DNA from: Thermoanaerobaculia bacterium
Lineage (GTDB): Bacteria; Acidobacteriota; Thermoanaerobaculia; Multivoradales; UBA5704
Direction: 5' to 3'
Length of the DNA stretch: 64,000 nt
Assembly: GCA_035544875.1 (NCBI GenBank)
Contig: DASZZP010000083.1
Location: forward strand, 384,219 to 448,218
Every line of letters starts with the position of its first letter. Within the stretch, counting starts at the first letter, position 1. The notes beneath the pieces were generated by a model. That model did no database searches and had not been told where the DNA came from. It saw nothing but the letters and a program-made list of their open reading frames with translations. The position numbers and the translations under genes were made by a program. Positions 1-64,000 of this stretch are shown in pieces.

Positions 1-284
1 GCCTATGCGCTTCAACGCTGGCCTGTTCATCAGCCCATCATACGCCCGAGCCCGAGCCAGCAAATCCAAGGCCTTGAACAGGCCAGAGAGCCCAAGACCC
101 CGAACTGTACGCCGCCCTCCAGGCGGCGATGGCACGACTCCGCGAGACTCAGGACCAAGCACACCACAGGCGGATTCGACCGCCTGCATAGCTGTCCGTC
201 CTCGCTGAGGTCAAACCGACCAACTGCCACTACCTCGCCCGCCTGGCGAGCGCCGCAGCCAAGTGCTAAAATAGATGGACGACC

Positions 285-764
285 ATGAGAATCCAGCAAC
301 GCACGCTCTTGATTGGCATGGCTCTCGGCCTCGCCTTCGCCGCCGCGTCCCCGGGCGGCGCTGCGGAACTGTCCGCCCCATCGCCGGCGGCTGGCCCGGC
401 CGAGGTTCTCTTCCCTTGCGTGGCCGATGACACGACCATGTGCCTTAATCATGGCCGCTTCCGGACCACGGCCAACTTCCGCACCAACGAAGGGGTGACG
501 GGGGGAGCTCACGCGGTACCCTTGACCGACGACACGGGTTACTTCTGGTTTTTCAGCTCCAGCAACGTGGAGATCATCGTCAAGGTGCTCAACGGCTGCG
601 GCGTCAACCAGCATTACTGGGTGTTTGCCGGCGGCCTGACCAACGTCAACGTGATCATGAGAGTTGCCGATACGACGAACGAAGGGTTCACGCAGTACGA
701 CAACCGGCCGAATACGCCTTACCAGCCGGTGCAGGACACAACGGCTTTCCCCAACTGTCCCTAG
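285..764 (+). CDS. hypothetical secreted protein (159 aa) with N-terminal signal peptide
   Basis: ATG at 285. N-terminus MRIQQRTLLIGMALGLAFAAASPGGAA resembles a Sec signal peptide. Mature part is Thr/Asn-rich with 4 Cys. Composition is protein-like, unlike the overlapping antisense ORF 30..614. Confidence 0.45.
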   Translation: MRIQQRTLLIGMALGLAFAAASPGGAAELSAPSPAAGPAEVLFPCVADDTTMCLNHGRFRTTANFRTNEGVTGGAHAVPLTDDTGYFWFFSSSNVEIIVKVLNGCGVNQHYWVFAGGLTNVNVIMRVADTTNEGFTQYDNRPNTPYQPVQDTTAFPNCP

Positions 765-815
765 TGCCGTGTACCAGTTGAATCGCTAGCGATTCGGTGG
801 GATGTCGGGAAGGTC

Positions 816-1061
816 TCAGCGATTCGGCGGCGGGGCAGGCTTCGGGGCGGGGGTCGTGGCGGACGTTTCCTTGGCGAGGGCGTCCAGGCGCTGACGCATC
901 GCCTTCTCGCGCGCGCGAATAGCCGCCGTAATCGCGAGCTGCAGCTCGTTCGGCTGAGCCACCTCGGCGGGGGGTGGCGAGGCCGGCGGCAAGCCGAGCC
1001 GCTGGCGAACCCGCTGTCCGGCGGAAGGCTTCAGCGTGAGCGGCGCGAAGTAAGGAGCCAT
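816..1061 (-). CDS. small hypothetical protein (81 aa; Pro/Ala-rich ends, central helical segment)
   Basis: ATG (revcomp of cat at 1059-1061) in frame to the stop at 816. Sequence MAPYFAPLTLKPSAGQRV...LQLAITAAIRAREKAMRQRLDALAKE has ordinary composition. No recognisable family and the SD is weak. Confidence 0.2.
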   Translation of the reverse strand: MAPYFAPLTLKPSAGQRVRQRLGLPPASPPPAEVAQPNELQLAITAAIRAREKAMRQRLDALAKETSATTPAPKPAPPPNR

Positions 1062-1185
1062 CGCCCTGACACTTGGCCGGCGGCGGGTCTGGGTGGTGGA
1101 CTCGCCGCGGTTGCACTCGTTGTGCGGGCTGCCGTAACATCGCCTCAAAATTCGATCAGGCTGGCGCCGAGGAGGAGCCGCGCCG

Positions 1186-2013
1186 ATGAGCCAGGATATT
1201 TCCCGACGGGGTTTCGTGCGGCAGTCGCTCGGATGGACCGCGTCTCTGGTCTGGGGTCTCGACGCTTTCCAGGCGCTGGCCCAGAACGCGGTCGCACTCC
1301 TCAACTACCAAGGTCGCCTGACCGACGCCGCCGGTCTGCCGCGCACCGGCAGCGCCGCCATGACGTTTCGCATCGTCGACGCGGCTGGCAACCCGCTCGG
1401 CTGGGCGGAGACGCATCCGGCAGTACCGCTCGACAACGGCTTCTTCTCGGTGCAGCTCGGCAGCATCACGCCGCTGACGCCCGCGCTCTTCGCCGGCCCA
1501 CCCACCGACTCGTTCGGTCCCGTTCGCCACCTCGAGGTGACCATCGACGGGGAGACGCTGTTGCCCAACCTGCGCATCACGAGCGCCGCGTGGGCCATCG
1601 GCACCGTGGTTGGAGCCACCGGGCCAGCGGGGCCAAGTGGCACCGCCGGGGTGACGGGACCGACGGGGCCGATAGGCGCCACCGGTGCCGGACCCACCGG
1701 TGCCACGGGCCTGGGCGGAGCGACCGGACCGACAGGATCCTCGGGACCCGCCGGCGCCAGCGGACCGACCGGACCGAGCGGTTCGAGCGGCGCTCAAGGA
1801 CCCACCGGGCCCGCCGGGTCGACGGGACCCACCGGGCCGCAGGGCGCGTCGGGAGCCGCCGGAGCCTCCGGAGGTACCGGCCCCACCGGGCCGCAGGGCA
1901 CCTCCGGAACGACCGGTTCGACCGGTCCACAAGGGTCTACCGGGCCAACGGGCCCGATCGGATCGACCGGGCCGGGGTTTGGCGCCACGGGAGCCACCGG
2001 ACCGGGTCCCTAG
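1186..2013 (+). CDS. collagen-like triple-helix repeat protein with twin-arginine-type signal (275 aa)
   Basis: GGAGGAG SD at 1170-1176 and ATG at 1186. N-terminus [24 protein letters not shown] is a Tat-like RRxFV motif. The C-terminal ~150 aa are uninterrupted Gly-X-Y triplets (GPTGP, GATGP, GSTGP and similar). Confidence 0.75.
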
Positions 2014-2047
2014 CCGGGGCGACGCGGTGCTCCCCCGGATCGCCAGG

Positions 2048-2734
2048 ATGGGTGGCCTGCCAGCAGCCCTGGGTGTTTTCACCCTGATGGCAGGCTTCGG
2101 CTCTCGCGGGCTCCTCGCGCAGAACGTCGTCGTCGAGACCCCCGCACTCACCTCGGGCGGCGGCCTCGCCACCTCGGCCAGCCATCGGCTCTGGAGCTGC
2201 CTCTCCCACGACCCCTCGGGCACGGCGGCGAGCTCCTCGTTCCGCGTACGCGTGGGTTGCGGCGCGGCGCTGGCTGGCGGCGTCATCGTCACCAAGGCGC
2301 CCACCAGCCTCTCCGCCCAAGCGACCCCGTCGTCGGCCCCGGTCGGCGGGAGCATCGCCGATCAAGCCACGCTCTCGGGCGGCGATCGACCCACCGGCAC
2401 GATCACCTTCAACCTCTTCGCCCCTGGCGACACGGGCTGCGCGAGCTCGATCTTCACCTCGACGAAGTCCGTGAGCGGCGATGGCACCTACACCTCCGAC
2501 TCCTTCGCGGCTTTGACTCCAGGCACCTACCGGTGGATCGCGAGCTATAGCGGCGACGCCAACAACCTCGCGGCTGGGCCGACCGTGTGCAGCGATCCGG
2601 TGCAGGCGGCCGTCGTCACTGGGTTCACCGCGGCGATTCCGACGCTCGATCCCCGCGGCCTGGCTCTGCTCGTCCTGCTGCTGGCCGCGGCCGGGCTTCT
2701 CATCGCACGTCGCGCGCCGCTGCCGCCGCGGTGA
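2048..2734 (+). CDS. cell-surface protein with C-terminal IPTL-CTERM sorting domain (228 aa)
   Basis: ATG at 2048, in frame with ORF 1685..2734. N-terminal hydrophobic signal (MGGLPAALGVFTLMAGFGSRGLLAQ). Ser/Thr/Gly-rich body. C-terminus ...AAIPTLDPRGLALLVLLLAAAGLLIARRAPLPPR has an IPTL motif, a TM helix and a basic tail, which is the IPTL-CTERM architecture (TIGR04174-like). Confidence 0.65.
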   Translation: MGGLPAALGVFTLMAGFGSRGLLAQNVVVETPALTSGGGLATSASHRLWSCLSHDPSGTAASSSFRVRVGCGAALAGGVIVTKAPTSLSAQATPSSAPVGGSIADQATLSGGDRPTGTITFNLFAPGDTGCASSIFTSTKSVSGDGTYTSDSFAALTPGTYRWIASYSGDANNLAAGPTVCSDPVQAAVVTGFTAAIPTLDPRGLALLVLLLAAAGLLIARRAPLPPR

Positions 2735-2748
2735 GCCCCGCCGCCAGC

Positions 2749-5700
2749 ATGCCGCGAACAGCCCAGCCTGGCGACCGGCGGCCGACGATCTGCCTGTCGA
2801 TGATCGTGCGCGACGAGGCGCACATCGTCACCGAGGCGCTCGCCTGCCTGGCGCCTCATCTCGACTATTGGGTCGTGGTCGACACCGGCTCGACCGACGC
2901 CACCCGTGACGTGGTGCGCGACTTCTTCGGCGACCGCGGCATCCCCGGCGAGCTCCACGAGCGCCCCTGGCGCGACTTCGGTGCCAACCGCACCGAGGCG
3001 CTCGAGCTGGCGCGCGGCAAGGCCGACTATCTATGGGTCTTCGACGCCGACGACCTGCTGCGCGGCACGCCCGACCTCACCGAGCTCACCCACGACGCCT
3101 ACTCTCTGCGCTTCGACGGCGACCTGCGCTACTGGCGTCCCTTGCTGTTCCGCTCCGACCGCGCCTGGCGCTTCGTCGGCGAGCTGCACGAGTACGCCCA
3201 GTGCGCCGATGGGCCGGCGACCATCGCCAGGCTCGCCGGGGATCACGCGGCCGAGTCGCGCCGGCTCGGCGCGCGCAACCGGCCGGCGGACAAGTACGAT
3301 CGCGACGCCGCGGTGTTCGCCGCCGCGGTGGCGCGCGACCCCAACGACACCCGCAGCCTCTTCTACCTCGCGCAGAGCCACCAGGACGCCGGGCGGCTGC
3401 GCGAGGCGCGGGCCCTCTACGAACGACGCGCCGCCCTCGGCGGCTGGGGCGAGGAGGTCTACGTCGCCCTGCTGCGCGCCGCGCGCTGCCGGCGCGACCT
3501 CGGCCGGCCGTGGCCGCAGCTTCTGCCGGCGTTCCTCGCTGCCTGGTCGGCGCGCCCGACGCGCGCCGAGGCGCTGGTCGACCTGGCCGCCGTCGCCCGA
3601 CTCGCCGGGCGCTGGCCGGAGGCGCACCTGTTCGCCAGCCGGGCGGCGGCGATTCCGGATCCGGTCGACGACGAGCTGTTCGTCGAGCCGGCCGCCTATG
3701 CCTGGCGGGCCCTCGACGAGCTGGCGATCGCCGCGTACTACCTCGGCGACCTCGAGGAGTCGTTCCGCATCAACAGCGAGCTGCTGGCCCGCTCGCGGCT
3801 GCCCGAGCGCGAGCGCGGGCGCATCGAGAGCAACCGCGACTTCTCGGTGCCGCGGGTCAAGGACTCCAGGCTGCAGCACGACGCGGCGATCGTTAGGCGC
3901 ATCCTGGCGCGGTCGCGCGCGACCGCTCCTCGGGTCACCCTCACCATCACCAGCTGCCGGCGGCGGGACCTCTTCGAGAAGACGGTGTGCTCTTTCCTCA
4001 ACGCCTGTACCGACCTCGACCTGATCGACCGCTGGCTCTGCGTCGACGACGGCTCGAGCCCCGAAGACCGCCGCGAGATGCAGCGGCTCTTCCCCTTCTT
4101 CGAGTACGTCTGGAAGGGACCCGAGGAGCGCGGCCACGCGCGCAGCATGAACATCATCCGCGGCGCCGTGCGTACCCCCTTCCTCGTCCACCTCGAGGAC
4201 GATTGGCATTTCTTCGAGCGCCGCGACTACGTCGGGCCGGCGATCCGCATCCTCGAACGCGAGCCCGAGCTCGGCCAGGTCCTCTTCAACCGCAACTACG
4301 CCGAGGTGCTCGCGGACCGCGACATTCCCGGCGGGCAGCTGCGGGTGTCGCCGGCGGGCGATCGCTACGTCGTGCACGAGCACCACGACCCGGGCTCGGA
4401 GTTGTATCGCCGCCTGGCGGAGGTCCATCGGCGGCCCTCCAACGTCTACTGGCCCCACTACTCGCTCCGCCCCTCGCTGCTGCGCGCCACCGTCTTCGAG
4501 CGGGTGGGCCCCTTCGACGAGCAAGCCTCCCACTTCGAGCTCGACTACGCGCGCCGCTACGTCCACGCGCGCCTCTCCTCGGCCTTCTTCGACGGCGTCA
4601 ACTGCCTGCACATCGGCAGGCTCACCAGCGAGCGCGACGATACGGCAAAGCCGAATGCCTACGGGCTCAACGGCATGCCACGGTTCGACGACCGGCCGAT
4701 ACGCGTGCAGCTGCTCGCCAACTGGTGCACCAGCGAAGAGCTCTGCCGCATGTGGGAGAAGATGTCGCGCGGCGGCGGCCGCTGGGGACGGCTGGAGGTC
4801 ACGGCCGGCGGCGATGTCGACTTCCATGCGGTGATCAACGCCGCGCCGCCCGGGGCCGCGGTCGACCCGGCGCGGACGATCGTCTTCCACATGGAGCCGC
4901 GCAGCACCATCGCATCGATGCCCGCCGAGTGGCGCGATCCGGATCCGGCGCGTTTCCTCCAGGTGCGCAGCCACGCCGCCTTCCCCAACGTCTGCGAGTG
5001 GCACCTCGGTCCGACCTACGACGAGCTCTGCGCGCTGCCGATCGAGAAGACCCGGACCCTCTCCACCGTCACCTCCTCGCTCCACTTCTGTCCCGGCCAT
5101 CGGGCACGGATCGCCTTCATCAAGCACCTCGAGGCGAACGGCGTGCCGATCGACGTCTACGGCTGGAGCAACCATCACGGCTTCGCCGGTTACCGCGGAG
5201 CGTTGCCGCGGATGTGCAAGGACGCGGGCCTGTTCCCCTATCGCTACACCTTCGCAGCGGAGAACCACTGGGAAAGGAACTACTTCACCGAGAAGATCGT
5301 CGACGCGATCCTCGCCGAGTGCCTCTGCTTCTACTCGGGTTGCCCGAACCTCGCCGGCCACCTCGACCCGGCGGCCTACGTGGCCCTCGACCTCGACGAC
5401 TTCGCAGCGGCGGCCCGCACCATCGAGACGACGATCGCCAACGGCGAGTGGGAGAAGCGGCTCGACGCCATCCGGCGCGAAAAGCGGCGGATCCTCGACC
5501 AGCTCCAGTTCTTCCCCACTTTGGAGCGGATCGTCGTCGCGGCGCAGGCGGGGATGCCGTTGCCGACGTGCGACGCCGAGGATCTGGACGTCGTCCTGAT
5601 CAACCTCGATCGCCGGCCCGATCGCCTCGCCGCGTTTCGCGCGCAGGCGGAGCGCAGCGGGCTCTCCTACCGGCGGGTCGCAGCGGTCGACGGTCAGGCC

Positions 5701-6246
5701 ATCGCGCTCACCGCCGAGATCCGCCAGCTCTTCCGCGACAACGACTTCGGCTACCGCCGCAGCGTCGTCGGCTGCGCCCTCAGTCACCTCGGCGTCTGGC
5801 GAGCGGTCCGCCGGCCGACGCTGGTGCTCGAAGACGACGTCGAGCTCGCGGAGGCCTTCGTCCCGGGCCTGCGCTCGATCCTGGAGCAGGCCCGCAGCAC
5901 CGACCCTGACTGGGACCTCGTCTTCCTCGGGTACACCCCCTGGGAGGCACGCTTCGCCGAGCCGCCGCGCGAAGGGGGCGATCCGCGCCTGCAGCCCATG
6001 GGCTGGCTCGACTACATGGGCGGCTTGTTCGGCTACCTGGTGTCGCCCGCGGGAGCGCGCAAGCTGGTCGACCAGGCCACCACCGGCGGCATCCGCCACG
6101 GCATCGACCGCTTCGTCCATCACTCCGACCGCGGGCTGCGGGTCTACAGCGCCCTGCCGAGCATCGCGTTCTCGCCGTGCGCCCGGCTCGACGGCCAGGG
6201 CGACACCGACATCCAGCGCGACTTCACCCCGCTCGCGCCGGACTGA
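2749..6246 (+). CDS. multidomain glycosyltransferase (1166 aa): GT2 - TPR-like - GT2 - GT10-like (alpha-1,3-fucosyltransferase motif) - GT25-like
   Basis: ATG at 2749, in frame with ORF 2587..6246. GT2 signatures: ICLSMIVRDEAHIV...VVDTGSTD...DADD, and a second one VTLTITSCRRRDLFEKT...CVDDGSSPED. FucT-type motif YTFAAENHWERNYFTEKIVDA (FENS...Y.TEK). GT25-like C-terminus VVLINLDRRPDRLAAFRAQ...VVGCALSHLGVW...LEDD. TPR-like Ala/Leu-rich region lies between the first two modules. Confidence 0.8.
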   Translation: MPRTAQPGDRRPTICLSMIVRDEAHIVTEALACLAPHLDYWVVVDTGSTDATRDVVRDFFGDRGIPGELHERPWRDFGANRTEALELARGKADYLWVFDADDLLRGTPDLTELTHDAYSLRFDGDLRYWRPLLFRSDRAWRFVGELHEYAQCADGPATIARLAGDHAAESRRLGARNRPADKYDRDAAVFAAAVARDPNDTRSLFYLAQSHQDAGRLREARALYERRAALGGWGEEVYVALLRAARCRRDLGRPWPQLLPAFLAAWSARPTRAEALVDLAAVARLAGRWPEAHLFASRAAAIPDPVDDELFVEPAAYAWRALDELAIAAYYLGDLEESFRINSELLARSRLPERERGRIESNRDFSVPRVKDSRLQHDAAIVRRILARSRATAPRVTLTITSCRRRDLFEKTVCSFLNACTDLDLIDRWLCVDDGSSPEDRREMQRLFPFFEYVWKGPEERGHARSMNIIRGAVRTPFLVHLEDDWHFFERRDYVGPAIRILEREPELGQVLFNRNYAEVLADRDIPGGQLRVSPAGDRYVVHEHHDPGSELYRRLAEVHRRPSNVYWPHYSLRPSLLRATVFERVGPFDEQASHFELDYARRYVHARLSSAFFDGVNCLHIGRLTSERDDTAKPNAYGLNGMPRFDDRPIRVQLLANWCTSEELCRMWEKMSRGGGRWGRLEVTAGGDVDFHAVINAAPPGAAVDPARTIVFHMEPRSTIASMPAEWRDPDPARFLQVRSHAAFPNVCEWHLGPTYDELCALPIEKTRTLSTVTSSLHFCPGHRARIAFIKHLEANGVPIDVYGWSNHHGFAGYRGALPRMCKDAGLFPYRYTFAAENHWERNYFTEKIVDAILAECLCFYSGCPNLAGHLDPAAYVALDLDDFAAAARTIETTIANGEWEKRLDAIRREKRRILDQLQFFPTLERIVVAAQAGMPLPTCDAEDLDVVLINLDRRPDRLAAFRAQAERSGLSYRRVAAVDGQAIALTAEIRQLFRDNDFGYRRSVVGCALSHLGVWRAVRRPTLVLEDDVELAEAFVPGLRSILEQARSTDPDWDLVFLGYTPWEARFAEPPREGGDPRLQPMGWLDYMGGLFGYLVSPAGARKLVDQATTGGIRHGIDRFVHHSDRGLRVYSALPSIAFSPCARLDGQGDTDIQRDFTPLAPD

Positions 6247-6270
6247 TCACGGTGGGCGGCCTCCGGGCAG

Positions 6271-8802
6271 TCAGGTCGCGAAGGCCATCGCCAGCAGCGT
6301 CGCCTGCTCCAGGGCGTGGGCCTTGGCCGAGCCGGTGGCGGGGCTGCCGGCGGCGTGCCGGCGGACCGAGCGCACCGGGTGGCCGGCCAGGCGCTCGAGC
6401 CGCGGATGGACATAGAACAGGGCACCCATGTTGGCCGGCTCCTCCTGCACCCAGACGAGATCGTGGCAGGCGGGATGGCGGGCCAGCTCGGCGGCGATTT
6501 CACTCTTCGGGAACGGGTAGAGCTGGTCGATGGCGATGATTGCCGTCGTCGTCGCGGTCGCTGTCGTGGCAGCGGTCGCCGTGGTCGCCGCGCCAGCCGG
6601 GCCGCGCCGCCGCGCCCGCTCCCGGCGCAGCTCGTGGGCGATCTTGCCGCTGCAGAACAGCAGCCGCTGCGCGTTTTCCACCGCGGGGTCCGGGATGACG
6701 TTCAGGAAACGCTCGCGGCTGAGCTCTGCGAGCGGCGACGACGAATCGCGGTGGCGCAGCATGCTCTTGGGCGTCATCACCACCAGTGGCTTGCGCCAGG
6801 GGCGCAGCGCCTGCCGCCGCAGGAGGTGGAAGTACTGCGCCGCGGTCGACGGCTGGCAGACCTGGATGTTGTCCTCGGCGGCGAGCTGCAGGAAGCGCTC
6901 GAGGCGCGCGCTGGAATGCTCCGGGCCCTGGCCTTCGTAGCCGTGCGGGAGGAGCAGGACCAGCCCCGAGAGCAGGTTCCACTTGCCCTCGCTGGCGGCG
7001 ATGAACTGGTCGATGATGATCTGCGCGCCGTTGGCGAAATCGCCGAACTGCGCCTCCCAGAGGACCAGGGCGTCAGGGTAATCGCGGCTGTAGCCGTACT
7101 CGAAACCGAGCACCGCCGCCTCCGAGAGCATCGAATCGTAGATCTCGAAGCGCGCCTGGCCGGCGGCCACGTGCGCGAGCGGCGTGTGCTCGCCGCCGGT
7201 CTCGACGTCGATCAGCACGGCGTGGCGCTGGGCGAAGGTGCCGCGCCGGGTGTCCTGCCCGCTCATCCGCACCGGCACCCCCTGGCGGACCAGCGAGGCG
7301 AAGGCCAGCGCCTCGGCCATGCCATAGTCGAGCGGCCGCTTGCCGTGCCCCATCTCGGCGCGCTCCGCGAGCAGGGCCTTGATCTTCTTGTGCACCGCGA
7401 AGCTCTGCGGCCAGCTGGTCAGCGGCGCGGTCAGCTCGCCGAGCGTCTCGGCAGGCAGGCCGGTCGCGACCTCGTACTCGGGTTTGAACGGACCCCCCTT
7501 ATAGGGGTCCCAGTACGCCGGCAGGGTGCGCAGCGACGCGCGCTTCTCGAGCCCCTTGGCCTCGCCCTGGGCGGCGTCGAGCTCGGCGCGCACCACCGCC
7601 TCGCGCCGCTCGGCCTCGTCGTCGGCCAGGCCGATCCGCTGGGCGTAGATCTTCCACAGCGGCGGATGCGCCTCGATCTTCTTGTAGAGCAGCGGCTGGG
7701 TGATGGTCGGATCGTCGACTTCGCTGTGGCCGTAGCGGCGGAAGCCGATCAGATCGACGACCACGTCGGAATGAAAGGCGTAGCGGTAATCGACCGCCAT
7801 CGCCGCCACCCGCGCCACCGCCTCCGGGTCCTCGGCGTTGACGTGAAAGATGGGGATCGGCAGGCGCTTGGCGATGTCGGAGGCGAAGCGCGAGGATTGC
7901 AGGCTCGCCGGCTCGGTGGTGAAGCCGATCATGTTGTTGACGATGACGTGCACGGTGCCGCCGACCCGGTAGCCGGGGAGCTCGGCCAGGTTGAGCGTCT
8001 CGGCCAGCACCCCCTGGCCGGCGAAGGCGGCGTCGCCGTGCAGCACGATCGGCATCACCAGGGTGCGGTCGCGGTCGCCGAGCCGCACCTGCTTGGCGCG
8101 CACGCGGCCGACCGCCACCGGGTCGACGGCTTCGAGATGGCTCGGGTTCGACACCAGGTGGAGGTCGATCTCGCGGCCGTTTCGCGCCCTGAAGGTGCCG
8201 GTCGCGCCCATGTGATACTTGACGTCGCCGCCCCCCAGCACGCTGCGCGGATCGACGTCCTCGAAGCCGGCGAAGATCTGCGCCGCCGGGCGCCCGACGA
8301 CGTTGACCATCACCGCGAGCCGGCCGCGGTGGCTCATCGCCAGCACCACCTGTCTGGCCTCGTGCGCCGCGGCGCTCTCGAGCATCTCGGTGAGCAGCGG
8401 GATGAGCGCAACGACGCCCTCGATCGAGAACCGCTTGCTCCCCAGGTAACGCGTCTGGACCAGGGTCTCGAAGGTCTCGGCGCGCAGGATCTCATCGAAG
8501 ATACGCTGCCGGTCCGGCTCTCCTGGCGCCGGCGCCTCCATGCGCTCGCCGAGCCAGCGCCGCCGCTCGGCGGCCGGGATGTGCATGAACTCGACGCCGA
8601 TCGTTCCGCAGTAGACCCGGCGGGCGAAGGCCGCGGTCTCCGCGTCGGCCAGCTCGGCGAGCGCCGGCTGCGGCTCGGCGGCGAGCCGGCGCAGCGGATC
8701 GAGGTCGGCCTGCAGGAAGCCCAACCGGCGAAAGGCGTTCAGCGTCTTCTGATCGAGCTTGCCGCGGGGCTCCGCGACGGCGGTGGCGATCTCGGTGGTC
8801 AT
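6271..8802 (-). CDS. sucA: 2-oxoglutarate dehydrogenase E1 component
   Basis: Start MTTEIATAV is the revcomp of cat at 8800-8802. ORF 6271..9327 shows strong OGDH E1 similarity throughout (ThDP-binding GDAAFAGQG, transketolase-like C-terminus). The upstream in-frame extension is non-coding because it runs into the intergenic repeat. Confidence 0.9.
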   Translation of the reverse strand: MTTEIATAVAEPRGKLDQKTLNAFRRLGFLQADLDPLRRLAAEPQPALAELADAETAAFARRVYCGTIGVEFMHIPAAERRRWLGERMEAPAPGEPDRQRIFDEILRAETFETLVQTRYLGSKRFSIEGVVALIPLLTEMLESAAAHEARQVVLAMSHRGRLAVMVNVVGRPAAQIFAGFEDVDPRSVLGGGDVKYHMGATGTFRARNGREIDLHLVSNPSHLEAVDPVAVGRVRAKQVRLGDRDRTLVMPIVLHGDAAFAGQGVLAETLNLAELPGYRVGGTVHVIVNNMIGFTTEPASLQSSRFASDIAKRLPIPIFHVNAEDPEAVARVAAMAVDYRYAFHSDVVVDLIGFRRYGHSEVDDPTITQPLLYKKIEAHPPLWKIYAQRIGLADDEAERREAVVRAELDAAQGEAKGLEKRASLRTLPAYWDPYKGGPFKPEYEVATGLPAETLGELTAPLTSWPQSFAVHKKIKALLAERAEMGHGKRPLDYGMAEALAFASLVRQGVPVRMSGQDTRRGTFAQRHAVLIDVETGGEHTPLAHVAAGQARFEIYDSMLSEAAVLGFEYGYSRDYPDALVLWEAQFGDFANGAQIIIDQFIAASEGKWNLLSGLVLLLPHGYEGQGPEHSSARLERFLQLAAEDNIQVCQPSTAAQYFHLLRRQALRPWRKPLVVMTPKSMLRHRDSSSPLAELSRERFLNVIPDPAVENAQRLLFCSGKIAHELRRERARRRGPAGAATTATAATTATATTTAIIAIDQLYPFPKSEIAAELARHPACHDLVWVQEEPANMGALFYVHPRLERLAGHPVRSVRRHAAGSPATGSAKAHALEQATLLAMAFAT

Positions 8803-9039
8803 GGCGCGATCAGGATACCGCTTTCCGCTCCCCGGCCGCGACAGCGAGCGGCGCCAGACGCGGCAGATCTCTTGGACCGTCGCTGCGTATAGCAGGGTGG
8901 CCGCCGGCCGCCGCTCAAAGGGATGGGAGCCGATCCTCGCGGGCGCCGGGGAACTGGCCGATAATGCGCTGACCTCGCTGACCTCGACGACTTCGATGAC
9001 CTCCATCGGGGCCGATACCGGGGTCGAGGCGATCGCACT

Positions 9040-9175
9040 AAGGCGAAACTCCCCGAAGCAAGAGGGAGGGGGCGTCCCCTTCCCCCCCGGAGGGGTGGGA
9101 AGGGGATTGAGGGGTTGCGGGGGGCGATCCGATCGATGCTTCGAGCAGGCCTCCACCGCCGCATCGCAGCGGCGT
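9040..9175 (+). repeat. GC-rich intergenic repeat element, copy 1 (MITE/REP-like, contains CCCCTTCCCCC...GGGGAAGGGG hairpin)
   Basis: Near-identical sequence recurs at 29670-29815 (inverted), 35391-35457 (truncated) and 47940-48100. Shared core: GGGAGGGGGCGTCCCCTTCCCCCCCGG...GGGTTGCGGGGGGCGATCCGATCGATGCTTCGAG..GCCTC.ACCGCC.CATCGCAGC. Confidence 0.85.
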
Positions 9176-9272
9176 CTTATCCTTCGGGATCGTAACCGCC
9201 GGTGGGGACTAGATCGATTCAGACAGGGGAGCTGGCCGCCCCGCTCGGCCGCGCCCCGGAGGAAGCTTCGCC

Positions 9273-11984
9273 ATGACCGTGACCTCCGCCAAGTCCGCGC
9301 CCGCGCTGGCGCTCCTCGCCGCCACACTCTTGCTGGCGGCGGTGCCCGCGATCCTCGGGGGGCGCTCCGTGCTGGCTCTGCCGACGCCGGTCAACCTGGG
9401 ACCGTCGCCGTTCGAGCCGGCCTCGACGGGAGGCGCCGCGACGCTCGACCGGGCGCTCGCCAAGCTCTCGACCCACAAGCGGCTGCTGGTGATCGGCGCC
9501 CATCCCGACGACGAGGACACGTCGCTGCTGGCCCTGGTGGCGCGCGGCATGGGGGGTGAGGCCGCCTACCTTTCGCTCTCCCGCGGCGAGGGCGGGCAGG
9601 ACCTGATCGGGCCCGAGCTCGGGGTCGGGCTGGGGTTGATCCGCAGCCGCGAGTTGCTGGCCGCCCGCGCCATCGACGGCGGGCGCCAGTTCTTCAGCCG
9701 CGCCTACGACTTCGGCTTCACCATGTCGCTCGAGGAGACGCTCGGGCAGTGGCCGAAGGAGGTGCTGGTCGAGGATACGATCCGCGTCATGCGGCGCTTC
9801 AAGCCGCAGGTCGTGGTCTCGATCTTTCCGGGCGTGCCGGTCAAGACCCACGGCCAGCACCAGGCCTCCGGCATCGCGGCGTTCGCGGCCTTCCCGCTGG
9901 CCGGCGACGCCAGCGCCCTGCCGCAGCTGCGCGCCGAGGGGCTGGCGCCCTGGGCGCCGCAGGCGCTCTTCCGCAAGACCTGGTTCGACCCCCAGGCGAC
10001 GACGCTCAAGCTGCCGCTCGGCGGCATCGATCCGTGGAGCGGCAAGTCGGCCTTCCAGCTCGCCATGGCCAGCCGCGGCATGCACCGCTCGCAGGGCATG
10101 GGCTTGACGCAGGAGCTGGGGGCCAAGGACTCCGCGCTCGGCTGGGTCTCGGGCGGCGCCGGGGCGGCGGCGAAGGACCTCTTCGACGGCATCGACACCC
10201 ATCTGCGGGCGATCGCCCGGCCGCTCGCCGACCCGGTGCTGCGGTCGCGAGTAGCGGCGGAGCTCGAGGCCGTCGAGGGGCTCGCCGTGCGCGCCCGGGC
10301 GACGCTCAACCCGGAGCGGCCGGAGGCGCTGGTGCCCGACCTGGTGGAGGCCGTACGGCACCTGCGCGCCGCGGCGGCGCTGCTCGCGCCAGCGGGCGGG
10401 CGCCCCGACCAGAAGCCGGTGGCCGAGCTGATCGCCGAGAAGCTGGAGGTGGCCGAGATCGCCCTGGCCAGCGCCGCCGGCGTCGCGCTCGACGCCACGA
10501 CGCCGCGCGAGGCGCTGGTCGCCGGCGAGTCGTTCCCGGTCGCCGCGACCCTCTGGAACAGCGGCAGCCGGACGCTCGCCGCGGTCGCGGTCACCCTGGC
10601 CCCCGCGCCGGAGTGGCACGGCGAGCCGGTCGCCGGGGAGGCCAAGGAGCTGGCGCAGGGAGGGCTGCAGAAATGGGAGCTCAAGGCGGTGGTGCCGGCG
10701 GCGGCGCCGCCGACCATGCCCTATTTCCTGCGCCTGCCGCTCTCCGGCGGCCTCTACGACTGGAGTGCGGCGGCCGCCGGAGAGCGCGGCGAGCCGTTCG
10801 GGCCGCCGCCGCTGATCGCGCGCTTCAACTTCAGCCTCGACGGCGTCCCGGTCACCCTCGAGCGCGAGGTGGTGCATCTTCACCGCAACGAGGTGCTGGG
10901 GGAGGTCCGCCGGCCGCTGCGGGTGGTGCCGCTGGTCGAGGTGGCGGTCGCCGAGAGCGTGCAGATCTGGCCGCTCAGCCGGCATGAGCCGCGCGGCGTG
11001 CGAGTGGTGGTGACCTCGCACGCCAAGGCCGCTCTGCGCGGCCGCCTGGAAGTCGCCTCGGCGCCGGCCGCCGGCGGCGCGGCATGGCCCGCGGTGCCGC
11101 CCCGGTCGTTCGAGATCCCGGCTCCCGACCCCGCCGCCGACGAGGCGGAGGGCGAGCAGCTGGCGCTGCCCCTGACCCTGCAGCCGCCGGCTGCGCTGGC
11201 CCCGGGCCGCTACCCGCTGCGCCTGGCCGCGGTGCTCGAGGACGGCGCCCGTTTCGACCTCGCGGTGCCGGTCATCGACTATGCCCACATCCACCCGACC
11301 CCCAACCCGCGCCACGCGGCCGTCGAGGTCACCGCCACCGACCTCAAGCTGCCGCCGCTCGAGCGGGTCGGCTATGTGCGCGGCGTTTCCGACGAGGTGC
11401 CGGAGTTCTTGCGCCAGGCGGGAGTGCCGCTCGAGCTGCTCGGCCCGGGCGAGCTGGCGGGCGCCGATCTCACCCGCTACGACGCCATCGTGATCGGCAG
11501 CCGCGCCTACGAGAGCGAGCCGGCGCTGGCGCGCTTCAACCATCGCCTGCTCGACTACGTGCGGGGCGGCGGGCTGATGATCGTCCAGTACCAGCAGTAT
11601 GCCTTCATCGAGAGCGGCTTCGCGCCGTTCAAGCTCGAGATCGCCCGCCCGCACGACCGGGTGACCGATGAGACCGCCGCGGTCACCCTGCTCGACCTCG
11701 CCGACCCGGTGTTCAGCACGCCGAACAGGATCGCCGAAGCCGACTGGCAGGGTTGGGTGCAGGAGCGCGGCCTCTACTTCGCCCACAGCTGGGACCCGGC
11801 CTACAAGCCGCTCCTCGCCATGGCCGATCCCGGCGGGCCGCAGCAGCGCGGCGCGCTCCTGGCGGCGGCCTACGGCAAGGGCAAGTACGTCTACACCGGC
11901 CTCGCCCTCTTCCGCCAGCTCCCCGCCGGCGTGCCCGGCGCCTACCGCCTGTTCGCCAACCTGCTCGCGCTCGGGAGGAAGTAG
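9273..11984 (+). CDS. secreted PIG-L/LmbE-family N-acetylglucosaminyl deacetylase with large C-terminal extension (903 aa)
   Basis: GGAGGA SD precedes ATG 9273. Signal peptide present. PIG-L motif LLVIGAHPDDEDTSL plus downstream HGQHQASG. C-terminal ~200 aa (DAIVIGSRAYESEPAL...GGGLMIVQYQ) resemble a ThuA/class-I-glutamine-amidotransferase-like fold. Confidence 0.8.
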   Translation: MTVTSAKSAPALALLAATLLLAAVPAILGGRSVLALPTPVNLGPSPFEPASTGGAATLDRALAKLSTHKRLLVIGAHPDDEDTSLLALVARGMGGEAAYLSLSRGEGGQDLIGPELGVGLGLIRSRELLAARAIDGGRQFFSRAYDFGFTMSLEETLGQWPKEVLVEDTIRVMRRFKPQVVVSIFPGVPVKTHGQHQASGIAAFAAFPLAGDASALPQLRAEGLAPWAPQALFRKTWFDPQATTLKLPLGGIDPWSGKSAFQLAMASRGMHRSQGMGLTQELGAKDSALGWVSGGAGAAAKDLFDGIDTHLRAIARPLADPVLRSRVAAELEAVEGLAVRARATLNPERPEALVPDLVEAVRHLRAAAALLAPAGGRPDQKPVAELIAEKLEVAEIALASAAGVALDATTPREALVAGESFPVAATLWNSGSRTLAAVAVTLAPAPEWHGEPVAGEAKELAQGGLQKWELKAVVPAAAPPTMPYFLRLPLSGGLYDWSAAAAGERGEPFGPPPLIARFNFSLDGVPVTLEREVVHLHRNEVLGEVRRPLRVVPLVEVAVAESVQIWPLSRHEPRGVRVVVTSHAKAALRGRLEVASAPAAGGAAWPAVPPRSFEIPAPDPAADEAEGEQLALPLTLQPPAALAPGRYPLRLAAVLEDGARFDLAVPVIDYAHIHPTPNPRHAAVEVTATDLKLPPLERVGYVRGVSDEVPEFLRQAGVPLELLGPGELAGADLTRYDAIVIGSRAYESEPALARFNHRLLDYVRGGGLMIVQYQQYAFIESGFAPFKLEIARPHDRVTDETAAVTLLDLADPVFSTPNRIAEADWQGWVQERGLYFAHSWDPAYKPLLAMADPGGPQQRGALLAAAYGKGKYVYTGLALFRQLPAGVPGAYRLFANLLALGRK

Positions 11985-23331: not shown

Positions 23332-23413
<82 letters not shown>

Positions 23414-63489: not shown

Positions 63490-64000
63490 CGCGCCTCCTC
63501 GCTTTTGGAGCCAAGGTCGCCAGGGTCGCCAAGGGAGCCAGGGTTGCCAAGGTCGCCATGGGAGCCAGGGCCATGGGAGCCAGGGAAGCCAAGAGCGCTG
63601 GCGACGGCAGGGGCAGCGGCGGCGGCAACGGTGTGAGCGGCCTCGGGATTGCCGGTCGCCAGCGCGACGGCGTGCGCGATGCGGCGCCGGCTCTCCGCGC
63701 CGCCGCCTTCCCGCGCTCCGCCGAGAAGCAGTGAATACGCCAGCCCGAACGCCACCGCGCCCGCCTGGCGGTAGGCCGGGATCTCCTCGACGCCGAAGCC
63801 GCCGGCGGCCAGCATCGGGACGTCGCCGAGCGGTCCCCGAATGGTCGCCAGGTAGGCCGGGCCCGAGACCGGCGGCAGCGGGTAGACCTTGACCAGGTCT
63901 GCACCCATCTCCCGCGCCGCCACGATCTCGGATGGGGTGAGGGCACCCATGATCAGGAAGATCTCCGCCCGCCGGGCCTCTCGCGCCACCTCGGGCTCGA
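63486..64000 (-). CDS. eda: KDPG/KHG aldolase (Eda), 3' part; gene continues beyond window end; unusual Gly-X-Y-like C-terminal tail
   Basis: EIFLIMGALTPSEIVAAREMGADLVKVYP...AGGF matches the Eda family. N-terminal ~100 aa must lie beyond 64000. Last ~35 aa (GFPGSHGPGSHGDLGNPGSLGDPGDLGS) are encoded by short DNA tandem repeats at 63495-63600. Confidence 0.65.
   Translation of the reverse strand, partial: EPEVAREARRAEIFLIMGALTPSEIVAAREMGADLVKVYPLPPVSGPAYLATIRGPLGDVPMLAAGGFGVEEIPAYRQAGAVAFGLAYSLLLGGAREGGGAESRRRIAHAVALATGNPEAAHTVAAAAAPAVASALGFPGSHGPGSHGDLGNPGSLGDPGDLGSKSEEAR

Follow-up and report, generated by a model that had tools for sequence, protein, structure and literature searches.

A collagen-like protein and a multi-module glycosyltransferase encoded in one operon of a Thermoanaerobaculia bacterium: a candidate glycoprotein-fibre system

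A 64-kb stretch of a Thermoanaerobaculia metagenome-assembled genome (MAG; assembly GCA_035544875.1, contig DASZZP010000083.1, positions 384,219 to 448,218; hereafter the window, with a GC content of about 0.70) contains a tight three-gene operon near its 5' end. The operon encodes a collagen-like protein (g2), a small exported protein with an IPTL-CTERM tail (g3) and a very large multi-module glycosyltransferase (GT; g4). Across related genomes the collagen-like gene and the GT gene lie next to each other far more often than chance would produce, and these two genes form the conserved core of the system. Judging from sequence comparison, we think it probable that g2-g3-g4 is a dedicated glycoprotein-fibre operon in which the collagen-like protein is the substrate of the GT. 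A first-pass annotation of the same DNA had suggested a dedicated protein-glycosylation module of four genes; comparative genomics strongly supports such a module, acting on the exported collagen-like protein, and leaves the first of the four genes (g1) outside it.

A collagen-like gene beside the glycosyltransferase gene

The scan covered one genome per GTDB species and gave 66 loci. We counted a collagen-like partner when an open reading frame (ORF) with at least 12 Gly-X-Y triplets lay no more than 2.5 kb from the GT, using the loci with at least 2.5 kb of sequence on both sides (n = 41). A partner was present at 39 of the 41, which bears out the co-occurrence that the first-pass annotation had proposed as a synteny check. 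The two exceptions are L061, whose ORF reaches only nine triplets, and the weakly matching Streptomyces locus L070, which lies outside the family. The far flanks, 498 kb of sequence, contained three further collagen-like ORFs, each an additional copy at one of two loci, so the adjacency greatly exceeds what chance would give. In the window, g2 lies 735 bp 5' of g4 with g3 alone between them, and no other collagen-like ORF of comparable length occurs in the 64 kb.

The pairing is taxonomically broad. Record titles place the loci in Burkholderiales, Rhodocyclaceae, Comamonadaceae, Acidimicrobiia, Thermoleophilia/Solirubrobacterales, Thermoanaerobaculia, Binatia, Myxococcota, an alphaproteobacterium and a Nitrosopumilaceae MAG, with MAG lineage labels given as deposited and some of them dubious. 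The first three neighbourhoods had a single feature in common, namely a GPT-rich collagen-like gene beside the GT gene. The collagen gene can be upstream or downstream of the GT gene, and divergent or convergent, while the other neighbours are unrelated. Because position and orientation vary in this way, the coupling appears to be functional and not a matter of inherited operon structure.

Cultured bacteria carry the pair in its smallest form. In Acidovorax sp. SDU_ACID1 a Collagen protein (382 amino acids, aa) and a 639-aa GT, consisting of the first two modules of g4 only, are flanked by unrelated genes, and on the megaplasmid of Cupriavidus metallidurans CH34 (NC_007974.2, ~2,374,800-2,377,450) a collagen-like lipoprotein gene is followed directly by the gene for a 407-aa GT2-TPR protein. 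In annotated replicons, more distant homologs of the first g4 module (30-42% identity), the C. metallidurans GT among them, follow the same pattern: on a Mesorhizobium plasmid a ‘GT25 family protein’ gene adjoins an ORF with GAT/GST repeats, and on a Bacillus cereus plasmid a 359-aa GT is encoded near a ‘collagen-like repeat preface domain’ protein.

The GT family is also large. Public metagenomes contain more than 700 g4 homologs, many with the same architecture of about 1150-1200 aa, and a search with the two-module core (aa 1-650) matched 3,665 cluster representatives (50% identity) at E<=1e-30.

A few loci have unusual neighbours. In the Nitrosopumilaceae MAG (L068, 7029-7901 and 8001-10979), a GT homolog with 37% identity to modules 1-2 is encoded beside a Collagen + C1q-domain protein; its collagen is rich in Pro and Arg, not Thr, and the contig may either have been misbinned or be truly archaeal. 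In a Deltaproteobacteria MAG (L071, 5403-8068), a collagen-g3-GT operon is flanked by genes for a TauD-type Fe/2-oxoglutarate (2OG) dioxygenase and a GT32-like (Gly_transf_sug) protein, with an additional GT2 gene downstream; these neighbours could be further modification enzymes. Citrobacter plasmid NZ_CP056187.1 (L074, 48218-52494) carries a module-1 homolog of about 400 aa (32% identity) directly 3' of an autotransporter gene, as do Enterobacter and Escherichia coli plasmids, and this GT is a candidate dedicated autotransporter glycosyltransferase distinct from the BAHT family. Finally, gp35 of the Tunturiibacter jumbo phage Tunturi_5 (L075, PP885688.1, gp29-gp36) is a module-1 homolog with 36% identity, which adjoins a nucleotidyltransferase and lies a few kb from a tail-fibre gene with short GAT repeats; GTs resembling gp35 also occur in metagenomic phages of more than 600 kb.

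Limits of the operon

The first-pass annotation had described four co-directional, tightly spaced genes. All four ORFs are indeed present on the + strand of the window, but only g2, g3 and g4 are tightly spaced: the gaps are 34 bp between g2 and g3 and 14 bp between g3 and g4, as against 421 bp between g1 and g2. The wide gap holds an opposite-strand ORF (Table 1), which an independent gene caller also predicted on Logan contig L078, 6.9 kb long and identical in sequence, and which has a third-position GC of about 0.78 in its frame.

The g1 product has a hydrophobic N-terminus and four Cys residues. It has no family match in Pfam or NCBIfam, and no homolog was found in any of about 80 related loci. 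The GC content of g1 is also lower (0.62, versus 0.71-0.73). Because of its distance from g2, the opposite-strand ORF in between, its lower GC and its lack of homologs, g1 was rejected as a member of the unit, which is a tight operon of three genes and not four.

Table 1. Genes of the operon, modules of the glycosyltransferase and adjoining features, in window coordinates
Feature	Position	Strand	Description
g2	1186-2013	+	275-aa collagen-like protein, proposed glycosylation substrate
g3	2048-2734	+	228-aa small exported protein
g4	2749-6246	+	soluble 1165-aa GT2-TPR-GT-A-GT10-GT25 enzyme, four GT modules
g4 module 1	2788-3909	+	GT2 GT-A domain, aa 14-170 (D99-A-D-D102), and TPR/helical domain, aa 182-387
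g4 module 2	3934-4668	+	second GT-A-like domain, aa 396-640, invariant E483-D-D485
g4 module 3	4696-5553	+	GT10-like (fucosyltransferase-type) domain, aa ~650-935
g4 module 4	5581-6228	+	GT25 domain, aa ~945-1160, invariant E1028-D-D1030
g1	285-764	+	159-aa secreted protein, outside the unit
putative 81-aa ORF	816-1061	-	in the g1-g2 gap, outside the unit; MAPYFAPLTLKPSAG...
sucA-like ORF	6271-9327	-	next gene 3' of g4, convergent

A soluble glycosyltransferase with four modules

Searches with profile hidden Markov models (HMMs) found GT2, TPR, GT10 and GT25 matches in g4, and an AlphaFold 2 (AF2) model built from 41 homologs has a confidence (pLDDT) of 90 and places the domains one after another as expected. 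This agrees with the four-module enzyme of the first-pass annotation, apart from its length, which is one residue shorter than the 1166 aa given there, and its second GT2 domain, which stays below threshold. All other HMM assignments made in that annotation, for g2 and g3 as well as g4, held. We favour the start codon at 2749 over that at 2800 because the later start would lose strand beta1 (ICLSMIV) and conserved upstream residues. No signal peptide or transmembrane (TM) segment was found in g4, whose maximum 19-residue hydropathy is 1.36; with neither a signal peptide nor a hydrophobic segment, it is taken to be cytoplasmic.

Module 1 matches PF00535 at aa 23-105 (51.6 bits) and TPR models at aa 186-227, the latter within the helical domain seen in the model. 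We searched a profile of the g4 family against PDB sequences and ran Foldseek with the g4 model. In the profile search, module 1 matched SunS (1e-12), GmaR (3.8e-11) and ThuS (2.7e-8); the Foldseek ranking was the same, with SunS and ThuS at the top for module 1 and OGT/SPY, GalNAc-T2 and K4CP lower down. By BLASTP, module 1 shares 42% identity with the C. metallidurans 407-aa GT (E 2e-82) and 29% with the B. cereus plasmid 359-aa GT (E 9e-16). On these similarities, we propose that module 1 is an initiating protein O-glycosyltransferase resembling SgtA, SunS and GmaR.

Module 2 is more divergent. Its PF00535 match was sub-threshold in 10 of 12 family members (best E 6.3e-5), and its profile had no meaningful match in PDB sequences. 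Assignment as a GT-A domain is nevertheless supported by those sub-threshold matches, by the E-D-D motif and by the beta-alpha-beta topology of the predicted structure. Modules 1 and 2 together make up a core of about 640 aa that occurs alone in Acidovorax, Ottowia and Azoarcus.

The last two modules resemble known sugar-transferring families. Module 3 matches PF00852 marginally (25.3 bits, cut-off 23.9), and its PDB profile matches include plant FucTA (1.3e-10) and Helicobacter pylori FucT (8.6e-10). Module 4 matches PF01755 (46.5 bits, cut-off 24), with its E-D-D motif invariant in 41 sequences. Its PDB profile matches are Mimivirus R655 (1.6e-35), human COLGALT1 (1.5e-24) and 8xlz (1.9e-6), the last being the one bacterial GT25 structure in the comparison; Foldseek aligned module 4 with R655 at a root-mean-square deviation of 2.5 A over 231 columns.

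Other g4 homologs carry additional modules at the N-terminus or are fused to GT4, acetyltransferase or NTP_transf_5 domains, and such varied module sets would imply lineage-specific glycans. At one locus (L083, 3859-9855), the GT modules are encoded by separate genes around a collagen-g3 pair, namely a GT32+TPR gene, a 378-aa module-1 gene and a gene for a 613-aa protein with two module-2-like domains, so the GT modules are separable units.

An enzyme of this kind might instead make a free glycan, such as a lipopolysaccharide (LPS) core, capsule or exopolysaccharide (EPS) oligosaccharide, with the collagen-like protein merely a co-expressed surface component. The title of PF01755 (‘LPS biosynthesis protein’) and the JGI names of relatives point that way, and multi-GT-A fusions (the chondroitin polymerase K4CP and an Actinobacillus capsule multienzyme) are among the fold matches. 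LPS, EPS and capsule clusters, however, have a lipid-carrier transferase, a flippase or exporter, a polymerase and membrane association. None of these features belongs to the g4 operon: g4 lacks a membrane segment, and neither the operon nor the annotated related loci contain genes for an undecaprenyl-phosphate transferase or other initiating phosphoglycosyl transferase, a flippase, an ABC exporter, a polymerase or chain-length control. The only neighbour conserved across phyla is the collagen-like gene, and the nearest characterised relatives of module 1 are all protein or peptide GTs. We therefore consider free-glycan synthesis improbable.

The collagen-like proteins

The g2 product matches PF01391 Collagen with 51.5 bits (cut-off 27.2; E 8.7e-14). 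It consists of a twin-arginine signal (aa 1-33), a beta-sandwich N-domain (aa ~36-133) and a collagen stalk (aa 143-275), the last being a (Gly-X-Y)~43 sequence that extends to the stop codon. There are about 39-43 triplets, with uninterrupted runs of 9, 19 and 11. Proteins of the g2 family contain only these three parts (signal, beta-sandwich of about 100 aa and stalk), with no C-terminal domain or anchor. The AF2 model of the g2 N-domain has a pLDDT of about 90, and a Foldseek search against the PDB gave only generic beta-sandwich matches (best E 0.008), none of them significant.

The g2 signal (SRRGFV...ALA, with predicted cleavage before QN) fits the motif, hydrophobic region and AxA site of a twin-arginine translocation (Tat) signal, as the first-pass annotation had it. 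The motif [ST]RRxF[LVI] is invariant across the family: RR is present in all 28 members and F10 is nearly invariant. Many members read RRDFLKR, which is the textbook Tat consensus. Among the collagen-like partners, a twin-arginine-like motif plus a hydrophobic stretch was found in about 42 of 58 ORFs, actinobacterial ones included; this count is approximate, as the screen also accepted K-R and took in some spurious or truncated ORFs.

In the g2 triplets, the Y position is 44% Thr and 21% Ser, and Lys is absent. The pooled partner ORFs are similar, with 43% Pro at X, 53% Thr at Y and almost no Lys: nearly all partner ORFs have it in 0-3% of their triplets, with up to 13% in three ORFs of locus L030. 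A review puts Thr at Y at 31.6% for bacterial collagens overall (PMC8968730). The composition of the partners is thus BclA-like and richer in Thr than that of bacterial collagens as a whole. Because the partners are essentially free of Lys, the animal hydroxylysine route that GT25 would imply does not apply, and glycosylation of that type was ruled out; Thr is the likely acceptor. The operon in the window also contains no gene for a lysyl hydroxylase or 2OG-dioxygenase.

Two further features were seen among the partners. Actinobacterial partners (those of L003, L004, L012, L013, L015, L017, L020, L027, L028, L031, L032, L037, L039 and L066) share a C-terminal end of the form ...[KNTE]-F-T-G, with variants YTG and FAG and no TM segment after it, which may be a sorting or ligation signal. 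At some Thermoanaerobaculia-type loci (L001, 8703-9866, and L025), the N-domain of the partner is weakly PqqD/RRE-like (PF05402, 19.1 bits, sub-threshold) and precedes the RR motif. This partner adjoins NTP_transf_5 and ScmC-like genes (L001 neighbours, 6729-8671), and in the proteins P0033 and P0040 NTP_transf_5 is fused to the GT, which hints at substrate recognition like that of ribosomally synthesised and post-translationally modified peptides (RiPPs) or at further modification.

The IPTL-CTERM protein

The g3 product matches TIGR04174 IPTL_CTERM at aa 197-222 (25.2 bits, cut-off 20.5) and falls slightly under the cut-off of Pfam PF18203 (19.8 against 20.8 bits). Its C-terminal tail, IPTLDPRGLALLVLLLAAAGLLIARR, comprises the IPTL motif, a TM segment and RR (aa 195-222), and an identical NCBI protein is already titled ‘IPTL-CTERM sorting domain-containing protein [Thermoanaerobaculia bacterium]’, so this part of the first-pass annotation was sound. 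The signal peptide is of the Sec type, not Tat. A conserved, Cys-containing N-domain of about 55 aa with repeated SSxS[YFH]x[LV] (nt ~2123-2290) is followed by an Ig-like Big_3_5 domain at aa 92-175 (32.1 bits, below threshold). The 64-kb window contains no other IPTL-CTERM tail. No candidate sorting enzyme is encoded in the operon, so the name ‘sorting locus’, used in the first-pass annotation, is unsupported, and we know of no processing enzyme that has been assigned to the IPTL-CTERM signal.

A homolog search with the whole of g3 says little about the operon because the Big_3_5 and IPTL-CTERM domains dominate its matches. We used a local HMM of the N-domain together with tblastn instead. 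Eleven loci have a collagen protein with a g2-type N-domain (the g2N subfamily); ten of them carry a g3-like gene directly 3' of the collagen gene, and the eleventh is interrupted by a contig end. In the reverse test, which starts from g2 N-domain homologs, all four cases on long contigs were flanked by large GTs and had a g3-like gene after them. Over both searches, 14 of the 15 loci in the subfamily represented in the window have a g3-like gene next after the collagen gene. The IPTL-CTERM gene is thus a conserved third member, limited to this one subfamily, so of the conserved collagen, IPTL-CTERM and multi-GT combination expected at first, the collagen-GT core is general and the third gene is not.

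Most g3-like proteins end in [IVL]P[TVA][LP]... followed by a TM segment and RR, one canonical example being VPTLSNWGLVLL, and their middle section is variable. Three g3-like proteins from Acidobacteria-type loci have no TM segment (L057, 5833-7122; L069, 10771-11325; L083, 7600-8007). Their C-termini read ...V[SE]L[QMT]xF[TV][AI]E, with ...SF[TV][AI]E as the final residues, and may represent a different C-terminal signal.

The position of g3 also raises the question of whether g4, as a protein glycosyltransferase, acts chiefly on g3 or on further exported proteins rich in Ser and Thr. The g3 product is Ser/Thr-rich, its gene is only 14 bp from g4, and the g3-like protein of L082 has a short GPT run of its own. 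Module-1 homologs on enterobacterial plasmids adjoin an autotransporter gene and not a collagen gene, so acceptor choice is flexible in the wider family. Against this, g3-like genes are confined to the g2N subfamily whereas the GT-collagen pairing is general: it persists without g3 in actinobacterial loci, Acidovorax and Cupriavidus. As g3 also carries a Sec signal and not a Tat signal, we judge it quite improbable that g3 is the main acceptor, and g2 is the substrate considered below.

Comparison with known systems

The closest functional precedent is the SgtA-BclA3 pair of Clostridioides difficile, and the system of the window, which would work in a similar way, falls into the same broad group of enzymes. 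SgtA is a 358-aa protein with a GT-A domain (aa 1-260) and a TPR domain (aa 262-358), encoded directly 5' of bclA3, and in vitro it transfers beta-O-GlcNAc (N-acetylglucosamine) from UDP-GlcNAc onto Thr of the BclA3 GPT repeats in a Mn2+-dependent reaction (PMC7157674). In both systems a soluble GT-A+TPR enzyme with a DxD motif is encoded beside a Gly-X-Thr collagen-like protein, and for SgtA the Thr acceptor has been shown. The B. cereus 359-aa GT, which begins TISLCMIVKDE, has the size, architecture and N-terminus of SgtA, whose own start, MITISLCMI, is known from a cloning primer (PMC7157674); we used it as a stand-in for SgtA.

The differences from SgtA-BclA3 are considerable. In g4, three more GT modules (GT-A, GT10-like and GT25) are joined to the SgtA-like part in a single polypeptide, and the g4 family is spread over diderm and actinobacterial lineages. 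The host of the window's operon is a non-sporulating diderm, so the spore and Firmicutes context is missing. Unlike BclA3, g2 has a Tat signal, no C-terminal domain and a conserved IPTL-CTERM partner gene. No description of a collagen-like + multi-GT system was found in the literature, and database names are generic or LPS-related. The principle, though, has a precedent in SgtA-BclA3 (PMC7157674).

Spore collagens of other species share the stalk of g2 as well. BclA of Bacillus anthracis and B. cereus has a GXT-rich collagen-like stalk with O-linked oligosaccharides that are thought to aid hydration and stability. Its assembly on the spore takes place from the mother-cell cytoplasm and involves no export, and its glycosylation genes are dispersed. 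BclA also has a C1q-like C-terminal trimerisation domain, which g2 does not.

Module 4 recalls the GT25 enzymes COLGALT1/GLT25D1 of humans and R655, L230 and R699 of Mimivirus, which have an E/D-D-D motif and are associated with collagen (PMC9546862, PMC12987934). R655 and COLGALT1 are the best solved-structure matches to module 4, with R655 itself described as a putative collagen GT (PMC9546862). COLGALT1/R655-type enzymes, however, act on hydroxylysine in the lumen of the endoplasmic reticulum or in the viral factory, whereas the bacterial partners are Lys-poor and have no lysyl hydroxylase. Module 1 is matched in layout by SunS and ThuS (S-glycosyltransferases of glycocins) and GmaR (the Listeria flagellin O-GlcNAc transferase), each with an N-terminal GT2 domain and a helical or TPR domain. 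Like the role proposed for g4, theirs is to modify a polypeptide in the cytoplasm before export, but they are single-module enzymes whose substrates are small Cys-containing peptides or flagellin.

A soluble GT encoded beside an adhesin gene, which modifies the adhesin in the cytoplasm before secretion, is also known from HMW1C-HMW1, GtfAB and the serine-rich repeat (SRR) adhesins, and BAHT with its autotransporters. Those systems use Sec or accessory Sec and belong to unrelated families (GT41, GT4 and BAHT), while g2 has a Tat-type signal.

Lastly, the g2 N-domain is weakly similar to that of Bdellovibrio MAT fibres (NF053851 Bdello_MAT_N), although at 32 bits it falls short of the family cut-off of 60. 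MAT fibres are trimeric with a conserved N-terminal domain, but their stalks are not collagen and no GT partner has been described for them. Collagen repeats are common in phage fibres, module-1 homologs occur in Tunturi_5 (near tail-fibre genes) and in the metagenomic phages mentioned above, and the g2 N-domain has the weak MAT resemblance just described, yet it is scarcely plausible that the unit is a phage or mobile-element remnant or cargo (a tail-fibre-like collagen with a fibre-modifying GT), since the neighbourhood of the operon has no phage or mobility genes, its flanks are housekeeping genes of the sucA type (related loci being alike), its GC matches that of host genes and the partners bear Tat, Sec or lipoprotein signals that virion proteins would not need.

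A proposed mechanism and its weak points

The domain identities, the gene order, the conserved pairing, the solubility of the GT, the Tat-type motif, the Thr-rich composition and the homology of module 1 to protein glycosyltransferases are direct observations. From them we infer the following scheme, including which protein is the substrate, in what order the modules act, which sugars they use, whether export depends on Tat and follows trimerisation, and what g3 does. The soluble g4 enzyme would recognise nascent g2 in the cytoplasm, probably through its TPR domain, and module 1 would place the first sugar on Thr or Ser at the Y position of Gly-X-Thr triplets. Modules 2-4 (GT-A, GT10-like and GT25) would then lengthen this sugar to a short oligosaccharide. 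The glycans would take the place of hydroxyproline, hydrating the triple helix and promoting or stabilising it. Galactosylated threonine, Thr(Gal), has such an effect in the cuticle collagen of Riftia as well as in model peptides.

The modified rod, probably already trimerised, would leave the cell through Tat. The Tat pathway is a carrier of folded proteins. The g3 protein would leave by the Sec route, and its IPTL-CTERM tail would keep it in the envelope, where it could anchor g2, which itself lacks an anchor, or serve as an adaptor for it. We are less sure of the Tat step and of anchoring by g3 than of the claim that g2 is the substrate.

Several points weigh against this scheme. All of it is built on guilt by association and on homology, and source databases (JGI) name the relatives of g4 ‘GR25 family glycosyltransferase involved in LPS biosynthesis’. 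Similarity to GT25 does not give acceptor specificity, because the characterised GT25 collagen enzymes use hydroxylysine. The relation between module 1 and SgtA was judged through the B. cereus stand-in and not with SgtA itself. With regard to export, we know of no precedent for Tat transport of a rod about 35-40 nm long, and the model does not explain how a fibre in the periplasm would get to a diderm's cell surface. The partners of short, core-only GTs (in Comamonadaceae, Azoarcus and Cupriavidus) have Sec or lipoprotein signals, so Tat export is not a general requirement of the pairing. Finally, it is the position of g3 that suggests its role as a possible envelope anchor or adaptor for g2.

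The scheme can be extended to an unrecognised pathway of collagen maturation in many phyla, in which an SgtA-like initiator and exchangeable extenders, including a GT25 domain akin to the collagen GTs of animals and giant viruses, would O-glycosylate the Thr of Gly-X-Thr in the cytoplasm, the glycan would replace hydroxyproline, the folded trimer would be exported by Tat and, in one lineage, an IPTL-CTERM protein would tether it. We regard this extended version as doubtful. If it were true, it would describe the first Tat-exported glycoprotein fibre, and the association of GT25 with collagen would predate animals.

Implications

The g4 family is large and unnamed, and its members are nearly always encoded beside a Thr-rich collagen-like gene, in Proteobacteria, Acidobacteriota, Actinomycetota, Binatia, Myxococcota and others. 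A review holds that bacterial collagen-like proteins are mostly unglycosylated, with the exception of a few spore proteins of Firmicutes (PMC8968730). Because the GT-collagen pairing recurs across many phyla, the sugar-coating of bacterial collagens is probably far commoner than textbooks hold.

If the collagen-like proteins are indeed the substrates, glycosylation would be a common prokaryotic way to stabilise or functionalise collagen helices without hydroxyproline, which would bear on the production of recombinant ‘designer collagen’. Thousands of genes annotated as ‘LPS GT25-like’ would gain a function, and the GT25 collagen enzymes of animals and giant viruses would gain a bacterial context. 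There would also be the unusual possibility of a glycosylated rod exported by Tat. Cultured bacteria that carry the minimal pair (C. metallidurans CH34, Acidovorax sp. SDU_ACID1, Ottowia thiooxydans and Azoarcus sp. L1K30) make these ideas directly testable.

Other features of the window

A scan of window positions 1-6600 for promoters and terminators gave nothing that exceeded the expectation from shuffled sequence. Near the end of the window, tandem repeats of 9, 18 and 27 bp (63507-63585) form a run of seven Gly-X-Y-like triplets in two frames, an array whose shortness and nearness to the edge preclude interpretation. The sole Rfam match over the window is a tRNA gene on the - strand at 23340-23413.

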